Assembly (NCBI GenBank): GCA_002709665.1
Contig: PAQK01000010.1
Coordinates: 24,245 to 83,800, forward strand
Source of the DNA: Gemmatimonadota bacterium
Lineage (GTDB): Bacteria; Latescibacterota; UBA2968; GCA-2709665
Direction of reading: 5' to 3'
Length of the DNA: 59,556 nucleotides
Shown here: positions 2,852 through 55,396 of the stretch, in pieces
Layout: each line of letters begins with the position of its first letter
How positions within the stretch are numbered: position 1 is the stretch's first letter
The notes under the pieces: model-generated
Databases searched by the model: none
The model's input: the letters and a program-made list of their open reading frames with translations, nothing else
What the model was told of the DNA's origin: nothing
Made by a program: the position numbers and the translations under genes

Positions 2852-4030
2852 ATGAAAATCCTAATCGCCAATGTGGGCAGTACATCATTCAAGTACAAGC
2901 TGCTTGAAATGCCCGAGGAAACCACATTGGCTGAAGGTCGAATCGAGCGAATTGGTGATGAAGAGGCCCCGGTCGAGCATCGAATAGGTGAGCAACTTTT
3001 TGTGAAGACCTGTCGGATGCCGGACTATCCTTCCGCAATCAAGGAGGTGATGACGAGCCTCTCAGATCTCATCACACAGCCGGCTGACCTTGATGCGGTG
3101 GGCTTCAAAACGGTACATCTTCGTGGTGAACCTGGCACCTATCTACTCAATGAGGATACGCTTCAGCGGATGGCCGACTACAATGATCTGGCCCCCGCCC
3201 ACAACCCTCCATATATCCAGGCGATTCGGATCTTTCACGAATTGTACCCGGATCTCCCACTGATCGGCCTCTTCGAGACGGCTTTCCACACAACCATTCC
3301 GGACTACGCTTATACCTACGGTTTGCCCTACGAGTGGCAGGAGCAATACGGTGTGCGCAAATACGGATTCCACGGGGCGTCCCACCGATATGTCTCACAA
3401 AGGGTACCCGAATTGATCGATACGCCTGTTGCAGGATTCAAACTGGTCTCCTGTCATCTAGGTGGAAGCGCGTCTCTGTGCGCCATTGTGGATGGATGCT
3501 CAATCGATACAACTATGGGGTTCTCCGCGCAAGACGGGCTCCTGAACAGTACCAGAAACGGTTCCATAGACCCATTCATCATACCCTTTATGATGGACAG
3601 GGAAAGGTTTGCTACATCTGACATCCGCGAAATCCTATCCAAGAAGAGTGGATTGCTGGGTATTTCAGGACTCAGCGGAGACATGCGAGATCTCCAGGAG
3701 GCTGCGCAAAAGGGACATAGACGAGCAAAACTGGCAGTGGATGCGTTCTGTTATGGCGTAAAGACGCAGATCGCTGCTATGGCCGCTGCGATGGGCGGGG
3801 TAGATGCCATCGCCTTCGCCGGCGGCATTGGCGAACGAGGTGCCGACGTCCGTATGCAAGTTTCCAAAGGCCTCGAGTTCCTGGGCGTTTGTATTGACGC
3901 AACGCTCAACCAACAGGGACCTCCGGAACGTGTGATATCGCTACCAGATCCCCCTGTAGATGTGGTTATTGTACAAACAAATGAGGAGATTATAGTCGCC
4001 CGAGAAACAGCCCGTTTCCTTCAGGCCTGA
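2852..4030 (+). CDS. ackA: Acetate kinase
   Basis: MKILIANVGSTSFKYKL.., FHGASHRYV, SCHLGGSASLCAI and FAGGIGE are canonical acetate/propionate kinase motifs. Length is 392 aa. Confidence 0.9.
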   Translation: MKILIANVGSTSFKYKLLEMPEETTLAEGRIERIGDEEAPVEHRIGEQLFVKTCRMPDYPSAIKEVMTSLSDLITQPADLDAVGFKTVHLRGEPGTYLLNEDTLQRMADYNDLAPAHNPPYIQAIRIFHELYPDLPLIGLFETAFHTTIPDYAYTYGLPYEWQEQYGVRKYGFHGASHRYVSQRVPELIDTPVAGFKLVSCHLGGSASLCAIVDGCSIDTTMGFSAQDGLLNSTRNGSIDPFIIPFMMDRERFATSDIREILSKKSGLLGISGLSGDMRDLQEAAQKGHRRAKLAVDAFCYGVKTQIAAMAAAMGGVDAIAFAGGIGERGADVRMQVSKGLEFLGVCIDATLNQQGPPERVISLPDPPVDVVIVQTNEEIIVARETARFLQA

Positions 4031-43128: not shown

Positions 43129-44907
43129 CTATCTGTCCAATTCACCTGCAATTACGTTTATGCTTCCCAGAACCGCCACAACATCCGCTACCATCAATCC
43201 ATCCACCATCTCAGGAAAGCACTGGTAATTCATAAACGACGGTGGACGAACACGCAGACGATATGCGTGTCCACTGCCGTCACTCACTATATAGAAACCA
43301 AGCTCACCATTTGGGGCCTCTGTTGCTGTGTAGGCCTCTCCAGGTGGCGGTGTTAAACCGTGGTCGTCCATTGTAATCTTGAAGTGATGAATCAATGATT
43401 CCATTCCAGTATACACTGCGTCCTTCTCAGGAAGTATCACCTTCGAATCATCAACTTTGACCAAACCCTCTGGTAACTTGCCAACTGCCTGCTCGACAAT
43501 GGCGTTGCTTTGCCTGAGCTCCTCCATCCGTACCAAGTACCGGTCGTAAACATCACCATTGGTGCCGACGGGAATATCGAATTCAAGATCCTCATAGACC
43601 AAGTATGGCTCGTCCTTCCGAAGGTCGTAGTTCACACCGGATCCGCGCAGCATCGGGCCAGTGACATTCCAGGCGATCGCATCTTCCCCTGAAATCACAC
43701 CTATTCCTTTTGTCCGATCGATCCAGATCCGATTCCGTGTCAGAAGCCGGTCCACCTCTTCAAGCGCCGCAGGAAACTGGGAAGTGAAATCGGTTACAAT
43801 TGCTTGAAAGTTCTCCGGAACGTCCCATCCTAAGCCACCAATTCTGGTGTAACTCGTGGTCAGCCGAGTACCTGTCACCATTTCAAAGATGTTATACAGT
43901 CGTTCTCTTTGCTCGAAAGTGTATAGGAATACCGTCATCGCACCGATGTCGAGTGCGTGTGTTCCCAGCCACACCATGTGGTCGGCGATCCTTGATAGTT
44001 CGGCAAGGATGACGCGCACATACTGAGCACGAGCCGGCACTTTGAGTTCCATCAAATTCTCGACTGCAAGGGCATACCCGATGTTATTGGACAGTGGAGA
44101 AAGATAATTCATCCGGTCAGTTACAGTCACCCACTGGTTGTAGGTATGATGCTCACCCAGCTTTTCAAATCCCGTGTGCAAATACCCGATATCCGGAATA
44201 CACCTGGCAATCTTCTCGCCTTCGAGCTCTAGGGTCAGTCTGAGCGTACCGTGTGTGGCGGGATGCTGGGGACCCAGGTTCAGGATCATTCTCTCGGACG
44301 AGATTGGATCATCTTCCGCCTGATCGTCATCTTCTGCAAAGGGATTCCCTACAAACCCCGGGTCCTCGGGTGCAATCACATCTCGCTCACCCTTGCCGCT
44401 AACCGGGTAATCCTTACGTAACGGGTAATGCTCAAAATTCACCGGCATGAGAATTCGCCTCAAGTCGGGGTGACCTTCGAAGCGAATGCCGAACATGTCA
44501 AAGACCTCACGCTCAGGCCATTCGGCTCCTTTCCAGATAGAGCAGGCTGAGGCAATACTTTCGTCTTCACGAACCTGCACACGGAGTCTGAATCGGTGAT
44601 TCAACGAGTGGGAATACAGCTCATAGACAATGTGGAACCTGGCGCCGTGGTCAGCACCAGGATACTCAGAAAAATCAACTGAAGTCAGGTCGGTCAACCG
44701 GTCGAACACCAGACCCGGTTCGTCTCTCAAAAAGGTGAGGATTTCGAGGACCCGGTCTGGCCTGCAAACAACTGTCCATTGGTCGCCGGCCTCAACCGCC
44801 TCCACTACTTCGTCACCGAAACGATCCTGCAGCTTGCTGCAAACTATGTGTGTCTCGATCTTCCGGACACCTTCGGTTTCGGTCTCTTGTATGGTCTCTT
44901 CTGGCAT
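43129..44907 (-). CDS. nuoCD: Fused NADH-quinone oxidoreductase subunits C and D
   Basis: A single 592-aa ORF. The N-terminal half is NuoC-like (..[19 protein letters not shown]..). The C-terminal half is NuoD-like ([16 protein letters not shown].., ..[18 protein letters not shown]). Confidence 0.9.
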
Positions 44908-44931
44908 AATTTGTTGGCGACGTCTGTCTCT

Positions 44932-45417
44932 CTAAGCATTCGCCACTTGAGTGGGGTGCTCTCTGTCTATTTTGTCCTGAATCTTCATCAGTGCGTATAG
45001 CAAGTCTTCTGGCCGGGGAGGACAACCCGGCACGTAGACGTCTACAGGTAAAAATTGGTCGACGCCCTGTACCAGTGTGTACGTGTTGAACACCCCTCCT
45101 GAAGACGCACACGCACCCATCGAAATGATCCATTTCGGATCGGGCATCTGGTCGTATATCTTCTTCAAGACGGGCATCATCTTGATCGAAATCCTTCCGG
45201 AAACGATCAGCAGGTCGGATTGCCTGGGAGAAAACCGAACCGCCTCCGCTCCGAAACGAGCCATATCGAATCGCCCCGACAACGTAGCCATCATCTCAAT
45301 GGCACAGCAAGCTGTGCCGAAGGGCATCGGCCAGAGAGACGACTTGCGCGCCCAGTTGATCATACGGTCGAGTGTAGTGGTGATGGCATTGTCTCCAAGA
45401 CCGGACTCTAATCCCAA
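44932..45417 (-). CDS. nuoB: NADH-quinone oxidoreductase subunit B
   Basis: [23 protein letters not shown] and PGCPPRPE are the N2 cluster motifs. Confidence 0.9.
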
Positions 45418-45812
45418 TCAAGCCCTCCCTTCCGCCAGACATACAACAGCCCCATCACAAGCACACCTATGAACACGACCATCTCAGTAAAAATAAAAGT
45501 CCCCTGGGCGAGCAATTCCTTGAAAACAACCGCCCAAGGGTAAAGGAAAACGACTTCAATATCAAAAATAATGAACAACATTGCTACTAAGTAAAATTTC
45601 ACCGAGAATCTGAGTCTGGCATCCCCTACAGGCGGTACTCCAGACTCGTAGGGGGATAACTTGACAGGGTTGGGTCTGCGAGGACCAAACAGGTGAGTTG
45701 CAGCCAATGATACTGCGGCAAACCCGCCGGCAACGAGCATCAGAATTACAATCGGTAGATAATCAACCAACATTGGTCTGGACAACCCTCCCATTAAGCC
45801 ACCGGCAGGCAA
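45408..45812 (-). CDS. nuoA: NADH-quinone oxidoreductase subunit A
   Basis: [39 protein letters not shown] is present. The exact start among the N-terminal Met codons is uncertain. Confidence 0.85.
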
Positions 45813-45920
45813 TAACCTGCAATGAAAACAACCCTATGTGTCCCATTACCCAAAGGTGGAAGATTACAACAAAGACTCACAATTAAGGGCCCTAATGATT
45901 AGTCTTGCTCAAGTCCGAGC

Positions 45921-45949
45921 ATTATATGGTATGCCCAAATGAATGTCAA
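45921..45949 (-). promoter_or_regulatory. Consensus sigma-70-type promoter for the nuo(-atp) cluster (TTGACA-17-TATAAT)
   Basis: On the minus strand, TTGACA (45949-45944), exactly 17 nt, TATAAT (45926-45921), about 100 nt upstream of nuoA. Confidence 0.6.
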
Positions 45950-45996
45950 GCCATTTAACCTGATGAAATTCACCCCTGACAAGCCGGGCTAAACAC

Positions 45997-46026
45997 TTGA
46001 CAGGACCCTGGCACACAGCCTATTTT
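45997..46026 (+). promoter_or_regulatory. Sigma-70-like promoter candidate for the GT2 gene (TTGACA-18-TATTTT)
   Basis: TTGACA at 45997-46002, 18-nt spacer, TATTTT at 46021-46026. It overlaps the track's TTG 46025 start, which argues for a downstream start. Confidence 0.35.
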
Positions 46027-46087
46027 GATCTGCAATCTAGTCTTTACCGGCACCACAATATCGTCTCTGTCAACCAAGAGCATTTAT

Positions 46088-47107
46088 TTGGATCCAGCAA
46101 TTTCGTTTGTCCTTCCCGTCCACAACGCAGAGAAAACGCTCGGACAGGCCATACAAAGTATCCTGTGTCAAAGATACACATCGTTCGAGGTAATCGCCGT
46201 CGACGACGGGTCTACGGATGCAACACCCGCTATTCTCCGAACCTATTCTGCAAGAGACCCACGCATACGACCCGTATTCTGCCAGAAAAACGGGCTGATT
46301 GAAACACTGAACAAGGGTCTGAGTCTCTCAAAAGGAACTTTTGTGGCTAGAATGGATGCCGACGATATCTGCCACCCGGATCGTATCGGCATCCAACTCC
46401 AGTTTATGATGCGCAATCCTGAAATTTCAGTCTTGGGGACTCAGATCCGATGCTTCCCACTTCCTGACGTAGGCGAGGGCTTCCGAATTTATGAAAGCTG
46501 GATCAACGCTCTACTTTCTCCCGGGGATATTGGAAGGGAAATATTCATCGAGAGTCCTCTGGTTCACCCAACGGCATTTATCAGAAAATCAGCTCTGGAT
46601 GAGGTGGGAGGATATGAAGACAACGGTTGGGCCGAGGACTACGACCTCTGGCTGAGACTGTATACAAATCACAAGCAGTTTGCGAAGATACCCAGAATCC
46701 TTTTTTCCTGGCGAGAAGGAAGAGACAGACTCACAAGAACTGACTCCAGATATTCCGTAGAGAACTTCCTGAAGGCCAAAGCACATTACCTGAAGCTGGG
46801 TCCACTAAAAAAGTCACCAAATGTCATCATATGGGGAGCAGGACAGATTGGCCGGCGAATCTCCAAGCATCTTCTGCGGGAGGGTGTCACTTTAAACACG
46901 TTTGTCGACATCGACCCAAAAAAAATCGGCAGGTCCAGGAGAGGCGCACCCATAGTTTCACCAGATGAATTGCCGTCAGTCTGGCGGGCGGCAGGCCGAC
47001 CTCTCGTGCTAGCAGCAGTGCCATCTCGAGGGGCTCGGGAACTCATACGCAACCACTTGAATCGATTGGGTCTGAAAGAAGGGGAGCACTTTATCTGTGT
47101 GGCATGA
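46088..47107 (+). CDS. Family 2 glycosyltransferase fused to a C-terminal Rossmann-like (GxGxxG) domain
   Basis: ISFVLPVHNAEKTL, VIAVDDGSTDAT and RMDADD are GT-A motifs. The C-terminal part has VIIWGAGQIGRRISKHLL..FVDIDPKK. The ORF is open from 46025. I prefer TTG 46088 (MDPAISFVLPV..), but the start is uncertain. Confidence 0.7.
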   Translation: MDPAISFVLPVHNAEKTLGQAIQSILCQRYTSFEVIAVDDGSTDATPAILRTYSARDPRIRPVFCQKNGLIETLNKGLSLSKGTFVARMDADDICHPDRIGIQLQFMMRNPEISVLGTQIRCFPLPDVGEGFRIYESWINALLSPGDIGREIFIESPLVHPTAFIRKSALDEVGGYEDNGWAEDYDLWLRLYTNHKQFAKIPRILFSWREGRDRLTRTDSRYSVENFLKAKAHYLKLGPLKKSPNVIIWGAGQIGRRISKHLLREGVTLNTFVDIDPKKIGRSRRGAPIVSPDELPSVWRAAGRPLVLAAVPSRGARELIRNHLNRLGLKEGEHFICVA

Positions 47108-47156
47108 ACCCTTTCTTCGGAACTGACATATCCAACCACGAACTTCGGAAACATAT

Positions 47157-47735
47157 ATGGTGGATGGTTTCTTCGCGCGTCTTTTCCGGAAACCTGCTGA
47201 GCCTGCGCCGCCTCAGTTGGAAATGCTCAGAAACAACCTTGAGAATCTCCCTGAAATCGTTGTGCCTAAGGGTTACAAACTCCGGTCCTATCACCCAGGG
47301 GATGAGGATGCCTGGTGTCGGATCATGGAGGGTAACGTAGGTAGAGAGTGGACTCCGGGAAAATGCCGAGAAAAGCTCACCGAAGATCCACGGTTCTCAT
47401 CTGAGAGTCTCTTTTTCGCGACCCTTGAAGGAGAACCGGTTGCCAGCGCCTGCGCCTGGACCAAATTGGTAGAGGAACGTGTGACAGGTGAGGTCCACAT
47501 GGTCGCCGTCCTTGAGAATCACCGAGGAAAGCGGCTGGGTCATCTGGTCAACAGTGCCGTCCTTCACCGTCTGAAGGAACTTGGTTTTCAAAAAGCACAT
47601 CTACTCAGCGATGATTGGCGAATCCCTGCAATTAAAAGCTATCTCACCGCAGGTTTTCATCCCCTCAATACGCACGAAAGCCACCCACAGCGATGGGAAA
47701 AGATCTTCGATCAACTGGGTATCTCCGGAAATTGA
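47157..47735 (+). CDS. GNAT-family N-acetyltransferase
   Basis: VAVLENHRGKRLGHLV (the R/QxxGxG/A acetyl-CoA motif) occurs in a ~190-aa protein. Confidence 0.75.
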   Translation: MVDGFFARLFRKPAEPAPPQLEMLRNNLENLPEIVVPKGYKLRSYHPGDEDAWCRIMEGNVGREWTPGKCREKLTEDPRFSSESLFFATLEGEPVASACAWTKLVEERVTGEVHMVAVLENHRGKRLGHLVNSAVLHRLKELGFQKAHLLSDDWRIPAIKSYLTAGFHPLNTHESHPQRWEKIFDQLGISGN

Positions 47736-47739
47736 ACAC

Positions 47740-48447
47740 CTACGCAAGCAATTCTGTATAGCCAAACCCTATGGCCTTCTTGACTCGTTCCAGCGTGTGC
47801 TGACCTTGGACTCTTGCTTCTGAACACCCAAGATTCAGGACGTCTCCGACAAGACCGGGCACTTTCTCCAGCTGCTGGCGCCTGGACTCGAATTCTTCTC
47901 CCAGCACACAATTGCAATCGCCTATTCCGGTGTAAATCGACGTAGGCTTGTGAAAGACATCCCCAAACCTTTCATTAAATTGTCCCGCCAGGCCTTGAGC
48001 CAGCAGAATACGATCCTCTTGATCGACCCCAACAGGTACGAGGGTGGGCCCGAACATCAGTATATACGCTGCCTGGAACAGAGAGTAACCAAGGTGCCCA
48101 TAAGTAGTGTCATCCAAACTGTCCTTCCCCAACAGCCTTTTAACCTGAACAAGGTTACTCAAGATGGATGCGAGTTCAGCAAGTTGTGGAACCTGGGATT
48201 GTAGGAAGCAAATACCACGCTCCAAATTGAAACCTAGCGCCAAAGCATCCAGAACCATTTCGGTGACACTGTCTTCGATATTTCGCCTAACGTAACTGCC
48301 TGATTTGAGTGTATGGTAGTCTGCTATCATCAGTAAGCAAGTATGGTCATTCTGAAGTGAGATAAGCCTACCCAGCGGGTTCGCGTAATCTTGAATGAAT
48401 GACCCAGCCGCGGGTTTAAGCCCGGTATGTGCAATTTGCCTTTTCAT
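47740..48447 (-). CDS. Truncated, catalytically degenerate tryptophanyl-tRNA synthetase paralog (TrpRS-fold pseudo-enzyme, 235 aa)
   Basis: It aligns by eye with the adjacent TrpRS: IADYHTL / IADLHTL, FLQSQV / YLQSAV, GYSLFQAAYILM / GYPVLQAADILM, LVPVGVDQED / LVPVGKDNEA, TLERVKKAIGF / TLKEVKKAMGL. HIGH is replaced by SFIQDY and KMSKS is absent. About 100 residues of the C-terminal domain are missing. It has its own GGAGAT SD and ATG. Confidence 0.75.
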   Translation of the reverse strand: MKRQIAHTGLKPAAGSFIQDYANPLGRLISLQNDHTCLLMIADYHTLKSGSYVRRNIEDSVTEMVLDALALGFNLERGICFLQSQVPQLAELASILSNLVQVKRLLGKDSLDDTTYGHLGYSLFQAAYILMFGPTLVPVGVDQEDRILLAQGLAGQFNERFGDVFHKPTSIYTGIGDCNCVLGEEFESRRQQLEKVPGLVGDVLNLGCSEARVQGQHTLERVKKAIGFGYTELLA

Positions 48448-48483
48448 GATTTCATCTCCGAAGAAGTGTTGTGGAGAATTTTC

Positions 48484-48524
48484 AAAAGAAAAAAGCCGCT
48501 GATCACCTTCCGGCGATCAGCGGC
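48484..48524 (-). terminator. Strong intrinsic terminator between trpS and the TrpRS paralog (attenuator candidate)
   Basis: On the minus strand, a perfect 10-bp stem GCCGCTGATC / GATCAGCGGC with a 10-nt loop is followed by TTTTTTCTTTT. It ends 36 nt before the paralog ATG. Confidence 0.8.
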
Positions 48525-48610
48525 TCAGTAGCACGCCAACGACGACCCGGTGTTGGCCATACCTCACCCCTTGACCAAATCCACCAAGCCCTTGTCCTAA
48601 AGGCACACAT
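48503..48610 (-). CDS. Candidate regulatory leader peptide 2 (35 aa, 5 Trp: MCAFRTRAWWIWSRGEVWPTPGRRWRATEPLIAGR)
   Basis: AAAGGAA lies 6 nt upstream of ATG 48610. Trp codons are at positions 9, 10, 12, 18 and 25. The TGA lies in the loop of the 48484-48524 terminator. The ORF is below the track's size cutoff. Confidence 0.55.
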   Translation of the reverse strand: MCAFRTRAWWIWSRGEVWPTPGRRWRATEPLIAGR

Positions 48611-48657
48611 CCAAATTCCTTTATATTCAAACGTCATTGTAACCTCGGTTCTAACCC

Positions 48658-49719
48658 CTATTCTTGGTTTTCCCTCTTTCTGTCTCTGGCTCTACGAGAA
48701 ATGCGATTCCATATTCCCGTCAAACCCATCGCCTTCTTCACTTCCTTCAGCGTCTCGTCCGCTATTTCTACGGCACGCAAGGTTCCCTCGTAGAGCACCT
48801 CCTCAACATATCCCTTGTCCTCCTCGAACTGTCTTCGACGATCTCTGATCGGATCCAGAAACGTGTTAAGGGCTGCAGTCAACTTTGCCTTCACTTCCAC
48901 ATCGCCCACTTTCCCTTCCCGGTATCTGGTCTTGAGATCTTCCACCTCATCCCTGTTCGGGTTAAACGCGTCGTGATAGATGAAAACTGGATTTCCCTCG
49001 ACCTTTCCAGGGATGTCAGCCCTCGTCCGATTAGGATCAGTAAACATTCCCCGAACACGCTTCTCGATGGTCTTAGCGTCATCTGAAAGAAGGATGCAAT
49101 TGTCCAGGCTCTTGCTCATTTTTGCCTGACCATCTGTCCCTACCAATGTTGGTACATCACCAATCATAGATTCCGGGATCGGGAAGACCTCTCCGTAGTA
49201 ATTATTGAATCGCCTGGCAATTTCCCGAGTGACTTCTACGTGGGCCTCATTGTCTTTCCCTACTGGGACCAGGTGGGACCTCGGCATCAGGATGTCGGCT
49301 GCCTGAAGTACAGGATAACCGACCAGTCCGAAAGGGATCGCTTCGTCATCCATATTCGCTGCCTTCGCCATATCCTTTATACTGGGCAGCCTGGCAACCC
49401 TCGGCAACGTCACCAACATCTCAAAAAACAGATTCATCTCGTAGACGGCGTGGACTGCCGACTGAAGGTAGATCGTCGATTTGGCGGGATCGATTCCAAC
49501 TGCCAGATAGTCCAATACCAGTTCCCGCGTGTTCTCTCTCAATGCCTCGATGTGTACCTTCTCCGGTCGGGTGGTAAGCGTATGCAGGTCAGCGATTAGG
49601 AAATAACACTCATACTCATCCTGAAGGCGGAGCCGATTCTGAAGCGAACCGACATAGTGACCCAGATGCAGCCGACCAGTCGGTCGGTCGCCTGTCAATA
49701 TTCTCTTCTTCTCACTCAT
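48658..49719 (-). CDS. trpS: Tryptophan--tRNA ligase
   Basis: HIGH motif (TGRLHLGHY), KMSKS, GYPVLQAADIL and VPVGKD are all present. ATG 49719 (MSEKKRILTG..) has AAGGAG 7 nt upstream; the track start at 49740 is a TTG. Confidence 0.92.
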   Translation of the reverse strand: MSEKKRILTGDRPTGRLHLGHYVGSLQNRLRLQDEYECYFLIADLHTLTTRPEKVHIEALRENTRELVLDYLAVGIDPAKSTIYLQSAVHAVYEMNLFFEMLVTLPRVARLPSIKDMAKAANMDDEAIPFGLVGYPVLQAADILMPRSHLVPVGKDNEAHVEVTREIARRFNNYYGEVFPIPESMIGDVPTLVGTDGQAKMSKSLDNCILLSDDAKTIEKRVRGMFTDPNRTRADIPGKVEGNPVFIYHDAFNPNRDEVEDLKTRYREGKVGDVEVKAKLTAALNTFLDPIRDRRRQFEEDKGYVEEVLYEGTLRAVEIADETLKEVKKAMGLTGIWNRISRRARDRKRENQE

Positions 49720-49742
49720 TTGTATGCTCCTTCTCGACAATG

Positions 49743-49772
49743 AAAAAACCCCTGCGGTCTGGCCGGCAGGGG
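49743..49772 (-). terminator. Intrinsic terminator in the trpS leader (attenuator candidate)
   Basis: On the minus strand, CCCCTGC-N10-GCAGGGG is followed by TTTTTT, ending 23 nt upstream of the trpS ATG. Confidence 0.75.
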
Positions 49773-49802
49773 TGAATCAAAAAGTCACTTTGTTGTCTTG
49801 AA

Positions 49803-49874
49803 TCAGTGCACGGTAAGCCAACCGGTATGATGTCGATCATACCACCAACTGCTCCGAAACCAACCGTGTACCAT
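49803..49874 (-). CDS. Candidate regulatory leader peptide 1 (23 aa, 4 Trp: MVHGWFRSSWWYDRHHTGWLTVH)
   Basis: AAGGAG lies 8 nt upstream of ATG 49874. Trp codons are at positions 5, 10, 11 and 19. An 8-bp hairpin (49824-49843) starts within the tandem Trp codons. The ORF is below the track's size cutoff. Confidence 0.6.
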   Translation of the reverse strand: MVHGWFRSSWWYDRHHTGWLTVH

Positions 49875-49913
49875 CTCAGATTCTCCTTGGAAGGTATGCC
49901 AATGCTCCTTCGA

Positions 49914-49942
49914 ATAATAGCCGAAACCACCCAACGTGTCAA
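49914..49942 (-). promoter_or_regulatory. Sigma-70-like promoter for the trpS leader (TTGACA-17-TATTAT)
   Basis: On the minus strand, TTGACA (49942-49937), 17-nt spacer, TATTAT (49919-49914). Confidence 0.5.
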
Positions 49943-49992
49943 GTTAATTGTATCTTGTCAACGATCCATACACCCTTAGGCACCTACCGACT

Positions 49993-50979
49993 TTACGCGG
50001 TCAGTAGTTTCGCCATATCCTTGGCAAAATAGGTCAATATCATGTCCGCCCCTGCGCGCTTGATGCCCAAGAGTGTTTCGACCATAGCTCGATCTTTATC
50101 CGCCCAACCTTTATCAGCCGCCGCCAGCACCATCCCATATTCTCCCGAAACATTGTAGGCGGCAATGGGTACATCAAACGCTTCCTTCGCCTTTGCGATT
50201 ACGTCAAGGTAGGGTAAGGCCGGCTTCACCATCACCACGTCTGCACCTTCCTCTATGTCCAACGCAATCTCTCTCATCGCCTCGCGGACATTTGCAGGAT
50301 CCATCTGATATGTCTTTTTGTCTTTGGGTATCCCGGACTGTTTCACTGGTGCTGACTTCAATGCGCCTCGAAATGGTCCATAGAAGCAGGACGCGTACTT
50401 TGCAGAGTAGGCCATTATGGAAACCTGCTCAAACCCCTCGTCGTCGAGGGCGTTCCGGATTGCCCCAACGCGACCGTCCATCATATCCGACGGGGTCACC
50501 CAATCGACGCCTGCCCTTGCGTGGGACAACGCCATATTGCACAACATGGCCACGCTTTCGTCGTTGGCGATCTCCCCATCAATCACCAGTCCGTCGTGTC
50601 CGTGGGTGGTGTAAGGGTCCAGAGCCAGATCCGTCTGGACACACAGTTCCGGCAGTGCATCCTTGAGTGCTCGAATGGCACGTTGTACAAGGCCATCGTC
50701 ATCGCAGGCCATTGTGGCCTTTTCATTCCTCTCTTCCGAGTAGCCGAACATGTTCACCGCACCTATGCCCAAGTCCCACAGCTCTTTGCATTCGGTCACC
50801 AATTCGTCTACCGTGTGACGAAACTGCCCCGGCATAGAATCGATCGGCTCCCTCCTGCCTTCGCCATTTGTTACAAACATCGGGTAGATAAAATCGCCTA
50901 CTGCGAGAGAAGTCTCGCGTACAAGTGTCCTTACTGGTTCGGTTCTTCTGAGTCTTCTAGGTCTGTAGGTCAAGTCCAT
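49993..50979 (-). CDS. hemB: Porphobilinogen synthase (delta-aminolevulinate dehydratase)
   Basis: The N-terminal YRPRRLRRTEPVRTLVRETSL..DFIYPMFV is typical of HemB. The active-site region includes MVKPALPYLD (Schiff-base Lys). Length is 328 aa. Confidence 0.92.
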   Translation of the reverse strand: MDLTYRPRRLRRTEPVRTLVRETSLAVGDFIYPMFVTNGEGRREPIDSMPGQFRHTVDELVTECKELWDLGIGAVNMFGYSEERNEKATMACDDDGLVQRAIRALKDALPELCVQTDLALDPYTTHGHDGLVIDGEIANDESVAMLCNMALSHARAGVDWVTPSDMMDGRVGAIRNALDDEGFEQVSIMAYSAKYASCFYGPFRGALKSAPVKQSGIPKDKKTYQMDPANVREAMREIALDIEEGADVVMVKPALPYLDVIAKAKEAFDVPIAAYNVSGEYGMVLAAADKGWADKDRAMVETLLGIKRAGADMILTYFAKDMAKLLTA

Positions 50980-53686: not shown

Positions 53687-55396
53687 ATGAACATTTCTAC
53701 ACACGATGTCCTGCTCGTCGGAGGAGGTGGCGCGGGACTGCGTGCTGCCATTGCCGCAGCCGAATCCAATGAAAGCATGAATATTGGCGTTGTATCCAAG
53801 GTATATCCCATGAGAAGCCATACGGTATCCGCCGAAGGTGGGACCGCGGCTGTAATGCGCGATGATGACAACCTGGATCTCCATGCCTATGATACGATCA
53901 GGGGAAGTGACTTTCTGGCCGACCAAGATGTGGTTGAGGCTTTTGTCGGTGAGGCACGTGATGAGGTAATACAGTTGGAGCACTGGGGATGTCCCTGGAG
54001 CCGCGACCCGGATGGACGGGTCAGCGTAAGGGCCTTTGGTGGGATGAGCACCAAACGGACGCTCTACGCTGCTGACAAGACCGGATTCCACATGCTTCAT
54101 GCCCTCTTCCAAACGTCCTTGAAATACAACGAAATCACCCGGTATGACGAATGGTTTGTCACCTCTTTGCTGGTCGATGACGGGCAGGTCAAGGGAGTTT
54201 CCGCACTCAACCTGCGCTCCGGTGTGGTACACGCCATCCCCGCCAAATCCGTGATTATTTGCACAGGTGGAGGCGGGAGGGTTTTTCCCTTCACCACCAA
54301 TGCTGCCATCAAAACAGGCGATGGTATGGCGTTGGCTTATCGAGCCGGGTGTCCTCTCAAGGACATGGAATTTGTCCAATACCACCCAACAGGCCTTCCT
54401 GGGACTGGCATACTTATGACCGAGGCATCGAGGGGTGAAGGTGGTTACATGATAAACAACAAAGGGGACCGGTATCTCAGCGAGTACGTGCCAGGCAAGA
54501 TGGAGCTGGGTCCCCGAGACATACTTTCCAGGTCGTTTGTCCACGAGATGCGGGCGGGCAGAACTTTCGAAGACGCCCAGGGGAACTACGTGCATCTGGA
54601 TCTTCGTCACCTAGGTGAAAAGGTGATCGATGAGAAACTGCCCTTTGTCCGAGAACTCACCCGAAACTACGTTGGCATTGACCCAGTCAAGGAACCGATC
54701 CCTGTCCGCCCCGTCGTACATTACATGATGGGTGGGGTCCATACCGATATAAATGGCTCAACTCCAATCGCGGGACTCTATGCTGCTGGTGAAGCAGCGT
54801 GTGTCAGTATGAACGGTGCCAATCGATTGGGCTCCAACTCCCTATCAGAACTACTCGTCTTTGGCGCTCGAGCCGGAAAATCTGCAGCTGCCTTCGCTTT
54901 GGAACAGGACATCCCTTCAGTCAGCGTACTCGAAGCTCTCGCTCAGGACGAACAGCAGAAGATCGAGTCACGGTTCGCGAAAAGCGGTGAAAGAACGGAA
55001 AAGATTGCCACGATCAGGCAGGAAATGCAGAACACGATGGAGCAGGGTGCAGGTATCTTCCGCAAGGAAGAAGACCTGAAGAAGACTTGCGAAACCATCA
55101 GGGAGCTCAAGGAGCGATATCAAAATGTAGGCCTAGATGATCAGTCCAGCGTCTACAACACGGAGATAACCACAGCTCTGGAACTCGGATATACCCTCGA
55201 TGTAGCAGAGACACTCGCTCACTCGGCCCTTCTCCGAGAGGAATCCAGAGGATCGCATTCCAGGTCAGATTTTGAAAAAAGGGATGATGAGAGGTATCTG
55301 AAACATTCGTTGGCATATCAGACAGACGACGATCCCCGCATTGATTACCTTCCTGTAGCTATGACCCGTTGGGAACCCGAAGAACGCAAATACTGA
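53687..55396 (+). CDS. frdA: Fumarate reductase / succinate dehydrogenase flavoprotein subunit
   Basis: The FAD motif [15 protein letters not shown], the covalent-FAD His in [10 protein letters not shown], plus HPTG and RLGSNSL are present. Confidence 0.92.

Follow-up and report, generated by a model that had tools for sequence, protein, structure and literature searches.

A Trp-codon leader peptide as the very probable control element between trpS and a TrpRS-like paralog in Latescibacterota

The stretch of DNA analyzed here (the window, 59,556 nt) comes from a bacterium labeled Gemmatimonadota and placed in Latescibacterota by GTDB (assembly GCA_002709665.1, contig PAQK01000010.1, positions 24,245 to 83,800), and all positions below are counted within it. 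On its minus strand, a 210-nt spacer (48657-48448) separates trpS, which encodes a tryptophanyl-tRNA synthetase (TrpRS), from a gene encoding a TrpRS-like paralog. The spacer contains a Trp-rich open reading frame (ORF) that enters a 15-bp terminator just 5' of the paralog. Comparison with related loci indicates that this spacer is very probably a genuine ribosome-dependent leader-peptide attenuator, which would decide whether transcripts leaving trpS proceed into the TrpRS-like paralog. It is called leader 2 below, as another Trp-codon leader (leader 1) lies upstream of trpS. The short ORF and the terminator are found upstream of a gene of the same clade (TrpRS2) in 38 of 38 distinct leaders, that is, in each related locus examined, and a WW-containing short ORF upstream of trpS was found in none of 46 control loci of other phyla; the combination is therefore not a product of chance. 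An earlier reading of the bare letters of the window (the sequence-only reading) had considered two W-rich leaders at one locus unlikely to be accidental, and the control counts, together with the conservation of leader 1, bear this out.

Two routes led to the TrpRS2-clade loci, protein identity and a protein-pattern scan of species-representative genomes. The resulting sample consists of 38 distinct leaders from Latescibacterota and a few metagenome-assembled genomes labeled Gemmatimonadota, and individual loci are given as L001, L004, and so on. The controls came from the same scan, and 330 nt upstream of each trpS were examined. Besides one identical strain and copies of L001, a metagenome scan for the window's own clade yielded a single new variant. 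Alignment of the spacers of relatives, which the sequence-only reading had proposed, shows that the mini-ORF and its in-frame Trp codons are kept in all 38 leaders. The paralog proteins are only 33-61% identical, while the WW pair, the frame, the distance from the ATG, and a bias toward in-frame TGG stay conserved. The same leader and terminator also precede TrpRS2 genes that have no trpS upstream (L009 and L012-type loci). Therefore, the hairpin is not merely the terminator of trpS, and the earlier proposal that a second Trp leader uses the apparent trpS terminator as its expression platform gains support.

The bounds of the spacer are as originally read, with the trpS stop codon at 48660-48658 and the paralog ATG at 48447 on the minus strand. 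The 35-codon ORF with five Trp codons on which the sequence-only reading was built (MCAFRTRAWWIWSRGEVWPTPGRRWRATEPLIAGR, followed by TGA) is present, and AAAGGAA (48622-48616) precedes its ATG 48610 by 5 nt (48608-48622 in all). However, the homologous start is probably ATG 48637 in the same frame, which extends the ORF to 44 codons plus TGA with six Trp codons (MTFEYKGIWMCAFRTRAWWIWSRGEVWPTPGRRWRATEPLIAGR, 48503-48637), and an SD-like (Shine-Dalgarno-like) GAGG lies 5 nt before it (48643-48646). The upstream ATG is favoured because relatives carry an in-frame ATG 15-18 codons before the first Trp codon, a distance that is 17 codons for 48637 and 8 for 48610. Most clades have a distance of 15 codons, the window has 17, and the L008 clade has 18; an SD-like GAGG or GGAGG stands 4-16 nt before the homologous ATG in 21 of the 38 leaders. 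ATG 48610 may plausibly serve as an additional start, and a comparable AAGGA-N8-ATG is found in L004, 9 codons ahead of WW. One other match to TGGTGG...CCNCCNCC occurs in the window (54264-54299, minus strand), where it lies antisense within a 569-amino-acid ORF on the plus strand (53687-55396), and it was dismissed as a chance occurrence.

Several features indicate that the ORF is translated in this frame. All six TGG triplets of the spacer share one frame, for which direct counting gives a probability of (1/3)^5, about 0.004. The WW pair is invariant among the leaders, WWW is frequent, and a peptide core R-W-W-(W)-x4-5-G-x-V-[CRWY]-P-P-P-[DG] is common to them, with PTP in the window where nearly all relatives have PPP. 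The first Trp codon and the last Pro codon are separated by only 36 or 39 nt, and the frame is thus kept; indels between WW and PPP consist of whole codons only. The distance from the last Pro codon to the terminator is 42, 43, 47, 49, or 50 nt. Along a minimum-spanning tree of the leaders, the synonymous share of codon changes is 0.30 in the ORF frame versus 0.17 and 0.15 in the other two, and stop codons within the conserved blocks number 0 versus 2 and 13. In the Val codon of the core, the first two bases are fixed and the third takes all four values.

The frame remains open and Trp-rich up to the terminator. Between the Pro codons and the end of the terminator 5' arm, the 38 leaders have 49 TGG triplets in frame versus 1 out of frame, at least one of them in each leader; in the window this further Trp codon is at 48536-48538. 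Further than 3 nt ahead of the 5' arm, no leader (0/38) has a stop in the ORF frame, compared with 9/38 and 10/38 for the other two frames. The leader stop falls on the first arm base in L042, inside the arm in L010 and L006, in the loop in L036, and at the top of the 3' arm in L004 and in the window (TGA, 48505-48503). GGUGG of the 3' arm is read in frame as AGG-UGG (Arg-Trp) in 29 of the 38 leaders, and the UGA stop of the window and L004 stands where other leaders have that UGG. At a group of loci (L008/L032, at about 3997-4003, L011, L023, and L034), several leader ORFs cross the terminator altogether and end at a TGA that overlaps the TrpRS2 start as ATGA, and others continue into the TrpRS2 coding region. 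Such overlap or run-in suggests possible translational coupling on read-through transcripts.

The terminator of the spacer is genuine. It consists of the hairpin GAGCCGCUGAUCGCC-GGAA-GGUGAUCAGCGGCUU (48493-48526) and the U-rich tail UUUUCUUUUG (48483-48492). The sequence-only reading had described a perfect 10-bp hairpin with a U-run; the inverted repeat GCCGCUGAUC/GAUCAGCGGC and the U-run are present, but the stem is in fact 15 bp long with a GGAA loop (48526-48493). Because of this longer stem, the TGA does not lie in the loop, as had been stated, but at the top of the 3' arm. Folding, also proposed at that time, recovered the terminator, and the spacer folds better than 200 of 200 shuffled sequences (z = -3.3). 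Pairing of the stem reaches 98.9% across 28 leaders, and 4-5 of its pairs show compensatory changes. Native arm pairs have a mean energy of -24.0 kcal/mol versus -17.1 kcal/mol for arms exchanged across clades, a difference of 7. RNAalifold on a MAFFT alignment returned the terminator only, and the helix described in the next paragraph was added by hand. L090, the same organism from another sample, differs within 260 nt of spacer only by C to U at 48523 in the 5' arm, which turns a G-C pair into G-U, so the terminator structure is preserved. The stem top is invariant, (C/U)NCC...GGUG (CACC/GGUG), and mimics the Pro and Trp codon strands. Two resemblances were also seen in the arms: the 5'-arm top, which reads GAUCGCC in the window (48520-48512) and either GAUCACC or GGAUCACC in the L004 and L026 terminators, is similar to the 16S rRNA 3' end, and GGUGAUC of the 3' arm (48508-48502 in the window) resembles an extended Shine-Dalgarno sequence.

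Upstream of the terminator, the Trp codons pair with the Pro codons. In the minimum free energy (MFE) fold of the window, segment 1 (48572-48590), which contains the Trp codons 48586-48584, 48583-48581, and 48577-48575, pairs with segment 2 (48544-48559; UGG-CCA-ACA-CCG-GGU, PTP here and PPP in nearly all relatives) with a duplex energy of -21.6 kcal/mol. Every clade has this Trp:Pro pairing (mean duplex energy, -20.7 kcal/mol), and in the alignment read by eye the register W1:P3, W2:P2, W3:P1 appears identical in all clades. In the window, W4 takes the third pairing and the Ile codon bulges out, while Thr (ACA) in place of P2 makes one pair weaker. The third base is A in Pro codon 2 and G in Pro codon 3, each in 36 of 38 leaders. 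As the Pro third bases are nearly fixed and the third base of the nearby Val codon is free, the constraint acts at the nucleotide level. The nearly fixed third bases have their pairing partner in the U of the Trp codons; the G of Pro codon 3 is also part of a GG-N8-YG motif. When the helix is imposed on the alignment, it is 78% paired and nearly invariant in one fixed register; thus, covariation neither supports nor contradicts it. A 6-bp GCCAAC-N11-GUUGGC hairpin reported by the sequence-only reading is present in the window but is not conserved, with 5 of 6 pairs in the close relative L004 and none elsewhere.

The hairpin is followed by a motif similar to a polymerase pause site. In the window, GG-N8-UG (48537-48548) lies approximately 10 nt past the base of hairpin 1:2, and the his and trp pause hairpins share this hairpin-to-pause geometry. 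The consensus of the elemental pause, as Larson and coworkers reportedly gave it in 2014, is G-11 G-10 ... Y-1 G+1. Counted from the first base after the last Pro codon, G is found at -1 in 36/38 leaders and at 0 in 37/38, a pyrimidine at +9 in 38/38, and G at +10 in 37/38. YG is kept although the codon at +9 to +11 varies among Arg CGN, Trp UGG (window clade), and Cys UGC. From this match to the published consensus of RNA polymerase pausing, which is referred to in PMC6336406, we infer a putative synchronizing pause site. In most clades a purine-rich SD-like run is found 7-12 nt upstream of the Pro codons (GGUGAGG in the window, within 48571-48560; GGGAGA or AGGAG elsewhere). This run could strengthen a ribosome pause at the Pro codons or pair with the terminator U-run.

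An antiterminator was sought by three approaches: MFE folding with the WW codons masked by a ribosome, folding of transcripts cut short ahead of the 3' arm, and comparison of duplex energies between native and cross-clade segments. Of the 19 representatives folded with WW masked, 16 keep the terminator as their MFE structure. Truncated transcripts yield clade-specific 2:3 candidates, such as the pairing of CCGG/CG/GUUGGCG/GCU with the entire 5' arm in the window. Native versus cross-clade energies gave no sign of co-evolution with the terminator for the 2:3 (-14.5 versus -14.7 kcal/mol), 2:4 (-17.2 versus -16.9), or 1:3 (-15.9 versus -16.3) pairings. A classical antiterminator is thus without comparative support in these alignments, and no conserved one was found by the three approaches. 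For this reason a mechanism of ribosome-polymerase coupling is slightly favoured, in agreement with the suggestion of the sequence-only reading that a ribosome completing the ORF would keep the 5' arm open, as in pyrBI-type control. The same reading held that the direction of the response to Trp cannot be read from sequence alone; this is the case, and the folds and co-evolution tests did not settle it.

In the favoured coupling model, unimpeded translation would lead to read-through and stalling at Trp codons to termination. It is adopted tentatively, on the anatomy of the leader, with a chance somewhat short of even. RNA polymerase would pause after the Trp:Pro hairpin until the first ribosome, on reaching the Trp codons, melts the hairpin and frees it. 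When charged tRNA-Trp is plentiful, the ribosome would keep pace through WW(I)W, PTP, and W. It would then stand on the 5' arm (48526-48512) as the 3' arm emerges, so that no terminator forms and the paralog is transcribed. A delay at any Trp codon would let the polymerase outrun the ribosome, upon which the hairpin would fold and transcription would end near 48484. The paralog would accordingly be made when Trp-tRNA is sufficient and would be uncoupled from the induction of trpS in starvation. Such a race best fits a frame that in every leader stays open as far as the terminator, Trp codons placed along the whole path, and a pause-like motif after the hairpin. Experiments in two other systems support the principle. 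In pyrL, a ribosome advancing through the hairpin suppresses termination and an upstream stall site raises it (PMC5021804). At the WWW motif of Chlamydia YtgCR, Trp limitation promotes downstream Rho-independent termination (PMC7755916).

A number of points weigh against the coupling model. The prior favours the opposite polarity, because stalling causes read-through in the known attenuators of aminoacyl-tRNA synthetase (aaRS) and amino acid biosynthesis genes. Vecchione and Sello are said to have described, in 2010, a starvation-induced attenuator upstream of Streptomyces trpS. The attenuators of Streptomyces trpS and pheST combine stalling at cognate codons with read-through (PMC1262725). 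Leader 2 is in series with the classical leader 1, and directly in tandem in L012-type loci; for leaders in series, opposite polarities would look odd. The conserved PPP[D/G] with its upstream context would slow the ribosome and is more naturally a parking site. The mimicry of the Pro and Trp strands by the stem top is left unexplained. The Trp:Pro hairpin is backed by invariance and not by covariation. In the folds, L005, L008, and L038 are the exceptions when WW is masked, with the Pro strand and the purine-rich loop forming a long helix with the 3' arm and the U-run. L042 and L037 show the same extended 2:4 helix, rivaling the terminator, once the 5' arm is blocked.

The main competitor is attenuation of the classical trpL type, which is less likely than not but ranks close behind the coupling model. 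In it, a ribosome stalled on WW(I)W would free segment 2 to pair with the 5' arm (2:3) or to compete for the 3' arm (2:4), giving read-through on starvation. With plentiful Trp-tRNA, the ribosome would instead pause on the Pro codons in place of the missing stop, mask segment 2, and let the terminator form. As in trpL, it is precisely the 5' strand of hairpin 1:2 that holds the Trp codons, and PPP[D/G] with its G-x-V-x context and the SD-like run 7-12 nt upstream fits a programmed pause over segment 2. The window offers the 2:3 candidate of the truncated transcripts, and in the L005, L008, and L042 clades a 2:4 helix is as strong as -25 to -29 kcal/mol. The invariant CACC/GGUG is what competition for a shared partner requires, the leader is in series or direct tandem with leader 1 of classical design, and the same polarity is known upstream of Streptomyces trpS (PMC1262725). 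However, no antiterminator co-evolves with the terminator across clades; the 2:4 pairing of the window clade is the weakest of all (-10.8 kcal/mol), and its 2:3 pairing gains nothing over pairings with foreign arms. A ribosome on WW leaves the terminator as the MFE structure in those 16 of 19, the defining stop before segment 3 is missing in 38 of 38, and the in-frame Trp codons beside the terminator (49 versus 1) have no role in this scheme. Two further explanations place weight on the peptide. An internal attenuator of inverse polarity with a nascent-peptide pausing module, in which the peptide core, the Trp:Pro hairpin, and the polymerase pause would time the race, is improbable; in Trp starvation it would turn the paralog off while leader 1 induces trpS, with the paralog perhaps acting as a regulatory or heterodimer partner of the TrpRS that trpS encodes. 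If it were true, the timing would integrate Trp-tRNA supply and possibly elongation factor P (EF-P), proline, or free Trp. Alternatively, RWW(W)-x4-5-G-x-V-x-PPP-[DG] could be an arrest peptide that stalls the ribosome at the Pro codons via exit-tunnel contacts, with the Trp codons as just one component of the signal. As with TnaC, EF-P, proline, or free tryptophan may be needed for the stall, and whether the terminator forms would be decided by the halted ribosome. Conservation at the peptide level does reach beyond the regulatory codons, which is not known from classical leaders. The Trp residues stand 10-13 before the last Pro, near the W12-P24 spacing of TnaC, and the nascent chain would be approximately 28-30 residues, the length of the tunnel, when the Pro codons are decoded, because ATG and W are a fixed 15 codons apart in most clades. 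PPP, PPD, and PPG are described as strong EF-P-dependent stall motifs whose strength depends on upstream context in PMC4176338. Set against this, complementarity to UGG also explains the PPP codons, whose third bases are constrained at the nucleotide level, and the window has PTP. No similarity to known arrest peptides is evident, none having been sought by a test, and nothing indicates sensing of free Trp. An arrest peptide in this sense is unlikely.

The two explanations that need no regulatory translation are both very improbable. One takes the hairpin for the ordinary trpS terminator with a fortuitous ORF, the paralog being expressed by leaky read-through or from an unrecognized promoter without Trp-dependent control. 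A textbook strong hairpin directly after trpS and a G- and T-rich sequence that readily gives TGG triplets would suit it. The comparative data contradict it: the same ORF and terminator precede TrpRS2 genes without upstream trpS, and WW, frame, ATG distance, and in-frame TGG persist across the phylum at the low paralog identity given above, with nothing similar in the controls. A promoter scan of the interval between trpS and the paralog detected no promoter-like site, and an internal promoter between the genes at this locus was accordingly rejected as a candidate. A TTGACG-17-TATTAT sequence that overlaps terminator 1 in L012 was also set aside, as it lies too near the leader ATG and is poorly conserved in sister loci. 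The other supposes an RNA-only switch for which the ORF is irrelevant, binding either tRNA-Trp in a T-box-like manner (UGG to the CCA of the anticodon or the 3' end) or a protein, which would be a TRAP-like factor or else the TrpRS paralog. It has in its favor that aaRS genes are often autoregulated via mRNA mimics, that UGG motifs are many, that the anticodon and the 3' end of tRNA-Trp are both CCA, and that the stem top is invariant. However, no T-box or other Rfam family matches the element even at E<=10. Rfam gave no gathering-score hits in the whole window, and at E<=10 in 47600-50400 only terminator-driven sRNA noise, with neither Trp_leader nor T-box matched. A run of 9-11 (G/U)AG repeats, as TRAP would need, is also missing: direct reading of 48657-48448 revealed NGG triplets in frame and no array of GAG/UAG (9-11 triplets, 2-3 nt apart). 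In addition, the frame-specific signals (synonymous excess, whole-codon indels, TGG at 49 versus 1, fixed ATG) argue for translation. All remaining explanations together are allotted only a small share of the probability.

The putatively regulated gene encodes a 235-amino-acid TrpRS-like protein (47740-48459 with its GGAG at 48459-48456; coding sequence 48447-47740, minus strand). Its translation lacks the HIGH and KMSKS motifs, and PF00579 matches it over part of the catalytic domain only. Alignment with relatives shows that an internal deletion of approximately 85 amino acids takes out the KMSKS loop and that HIGH is also lost, while the full-length, 332-amino-acid members of the TrpRS2 clade retain both motifs. 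The paralog is therefore predicted, by motif loss, to be a catalytically degenerate TrpRS. The indole-binding Asp of GYPVLQAADIL is Tyr in the window paralog (QAAYIL), and two close relatives of this protein have Asn in place of the GxDQ Asp. Truncated (234-307 amino acids) and full-length (332 amino acids) TrpRS2 proteins both occur across Latescibacterota, sometimes in closely related genomes, and the same leader precedes the two forms alike.

The order of elements on the minus strand is hemB (50979-49993), a promoter, leader 1 with its terminator, trpS, the 210-nt spacer, the paralog, and a convergent GNAT gene. The promoter, read between hemB and leader 1, is a near-consensus TTGACA-17-TATTAT (49942-49914). 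The upstream gene of the operon, trpS (48658-49719), encodes a canonical full-length TrpRS of 353 amino acids with HIGH-type and KMSKS motifs and a PF00579 match of 1e-78, and its product is 78-100% identical to many annotated Trp-tRNA ligases. The hemB-trpS-spacer-paralog-GNAT synteny is retained within the window's own clade. A wider order of hemB, trpS, TrpRS2, convergent GNAT, GT2 with a CoA-binding domain, and nuoA-B-CD was seen in the window (43129-50979) and in L001, L005, and L009; GNAT and GT2 still adjoin TrpRS2 in L009, where trpS is absent.

Leader 1 occupies 49942-49743 on the minus strand, upstream of the canonical trpS, and consists of the promoter, an ORF at 49874-49803 (MVHGWFRSSWWYDRHHTGWLTVH), and a terminator at 49772-49749 with a U-run. 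It is kept in syntenic loci as M.H..F..SWW(W)YDR(Y/H)HTG.L.V.* with a stop, approximately 30 nt, and then CCCCUGCCGG...CCGCAGGGG-U6. It also has a GGUAUGAU/AUCAUACC hairpin and a CCGGC that is complementary to GCCGG of the terminator, and candidates for 1:2 and 2:3 pairing were found by hand; MFE folds of leader 1 alone did not show an antiterminator. The position of the stop and these complementarities mark leader 1 as a classical stop-before-terminator design. The sequence-only reading had noted that the geometry of the two leaders differs, and it does so consistently: leader 1 stops well before its terminator, and leader 2 never does. In L012 (2563-3000), a promoter is followed by a classical Trp leader (MTMHDHILTDATPDRVLAPRVSETVRGWWRAVVWVC*) with its terminator, a WWW...PPP leader with its terminator, and TrpRS2. 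The same tandem arrangement, with no trpS between the leaders, occurs in L013, L015, L016, L019-L021, L029, L033, L034, and L039.

Leader-peptide attenuation has so far been worked out almost entirely in Proteobacteria and Actinobacteria, and leader 2 would add a phylum-wide, undescribed example from the uncultured Latescibacterota. Its upstream start, the pairing of Pro with Trp codons, the GG-N8-YG motif, the peptide core, and the phylum-wide distribution had escaped the sequence-only reading. It departs from the textbook in that the sensing codons pair with an in-frame polyproline stretch, the peptide is conserved, no stop precedes the terminator, and Trp codons continue up to the hairpin. 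This one region thus provides a natural test of whether ribosome-polymerase coupling or alternative RNA folding sets termination. It also raises the purpose of an apparently dead aaRS paralog in an operon headed by a normal trpS and the classical leader 1. For annotation, the leader supplies a defined motif for TrpRS2 genes in these genomes.

Compared with known systems, leader 2 is of a known kind, a Trp-codon leader peptide that would control a terminator before an auxiliary TrpRS, while its architecture is new and absent from Rfam and the searched literature. Full-text literature searches found no paper joining Latescibacter* with tryptophanyl-tRNA synthetase, and none describing a leader with Trp and Pro codons before an aaRS gene. 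It shares with the attenuators of E. coli trpL and Streptomyces trpS a translated short ORF upstream of a Trp-related gene, tandem Trp codons in the 5' strand of the first hairpin, a likely pause after that hairpin, and an intrinsic terminator before the regulated gene, which in Streptomyces is likewise an auxiliary TrpRS (PMC1262725). Unlike the trpL type, it has no stop before the terminator (0/38) and no conserved antiterminator was found; its Trp codons pair with an in-frame PPP motif, extra Trp codons abut the terminator, and conservation of the peptide reaches past the regulatory codons. Leader 2 has no sequence relation to these attenuators and lies inside an operon, after trpS.

The conserved short peptide of leader 2, with Trp approximately 12 residues before a conserved Pro at the presumptive stall site and downstream transcription under control, recalls TnaC. 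TnaC, however, senses free Trp, stalls at the stop codon, and blocks Rho, whereas termination in leader 2 is intrinsic, the Pro run is internal, and the Trp codons are tandem. T-box riboswitches, the usual control of trpS in Firmicutes, likewise use a terminator to adjust the expression of an aaRS gene to tRNA charging; unlike them, leader 2 has no T-box match and carries coding-frame signatures. As in pyrBI and pyrE, the leader ORF enters or crosses the terminator, a close ribosome can block the hairpin, and the distance between ribosome and polymerase matters (PMC5021804). The variable in pyrBI is the speed of the polymerase at U-tracts, set by UTP, whereas in leader 2 it would be the speed of the ribosome at Trp codons, and pyrL has neither a cluster of cognate codons nor a codon-paired pause hairpin. 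The Chlamydia trachomatis YtgCR motif has no homology to leader 2, lies inside a long protein-coding gene, and has no hairpin-pause-terminator module described. Nevertheless, it has a triple Trp at which stalling in Trp limitation promotes Rho-independent termination and lowers the distal product (PMC7755916), and this is the polarity favoured here for leader 2.

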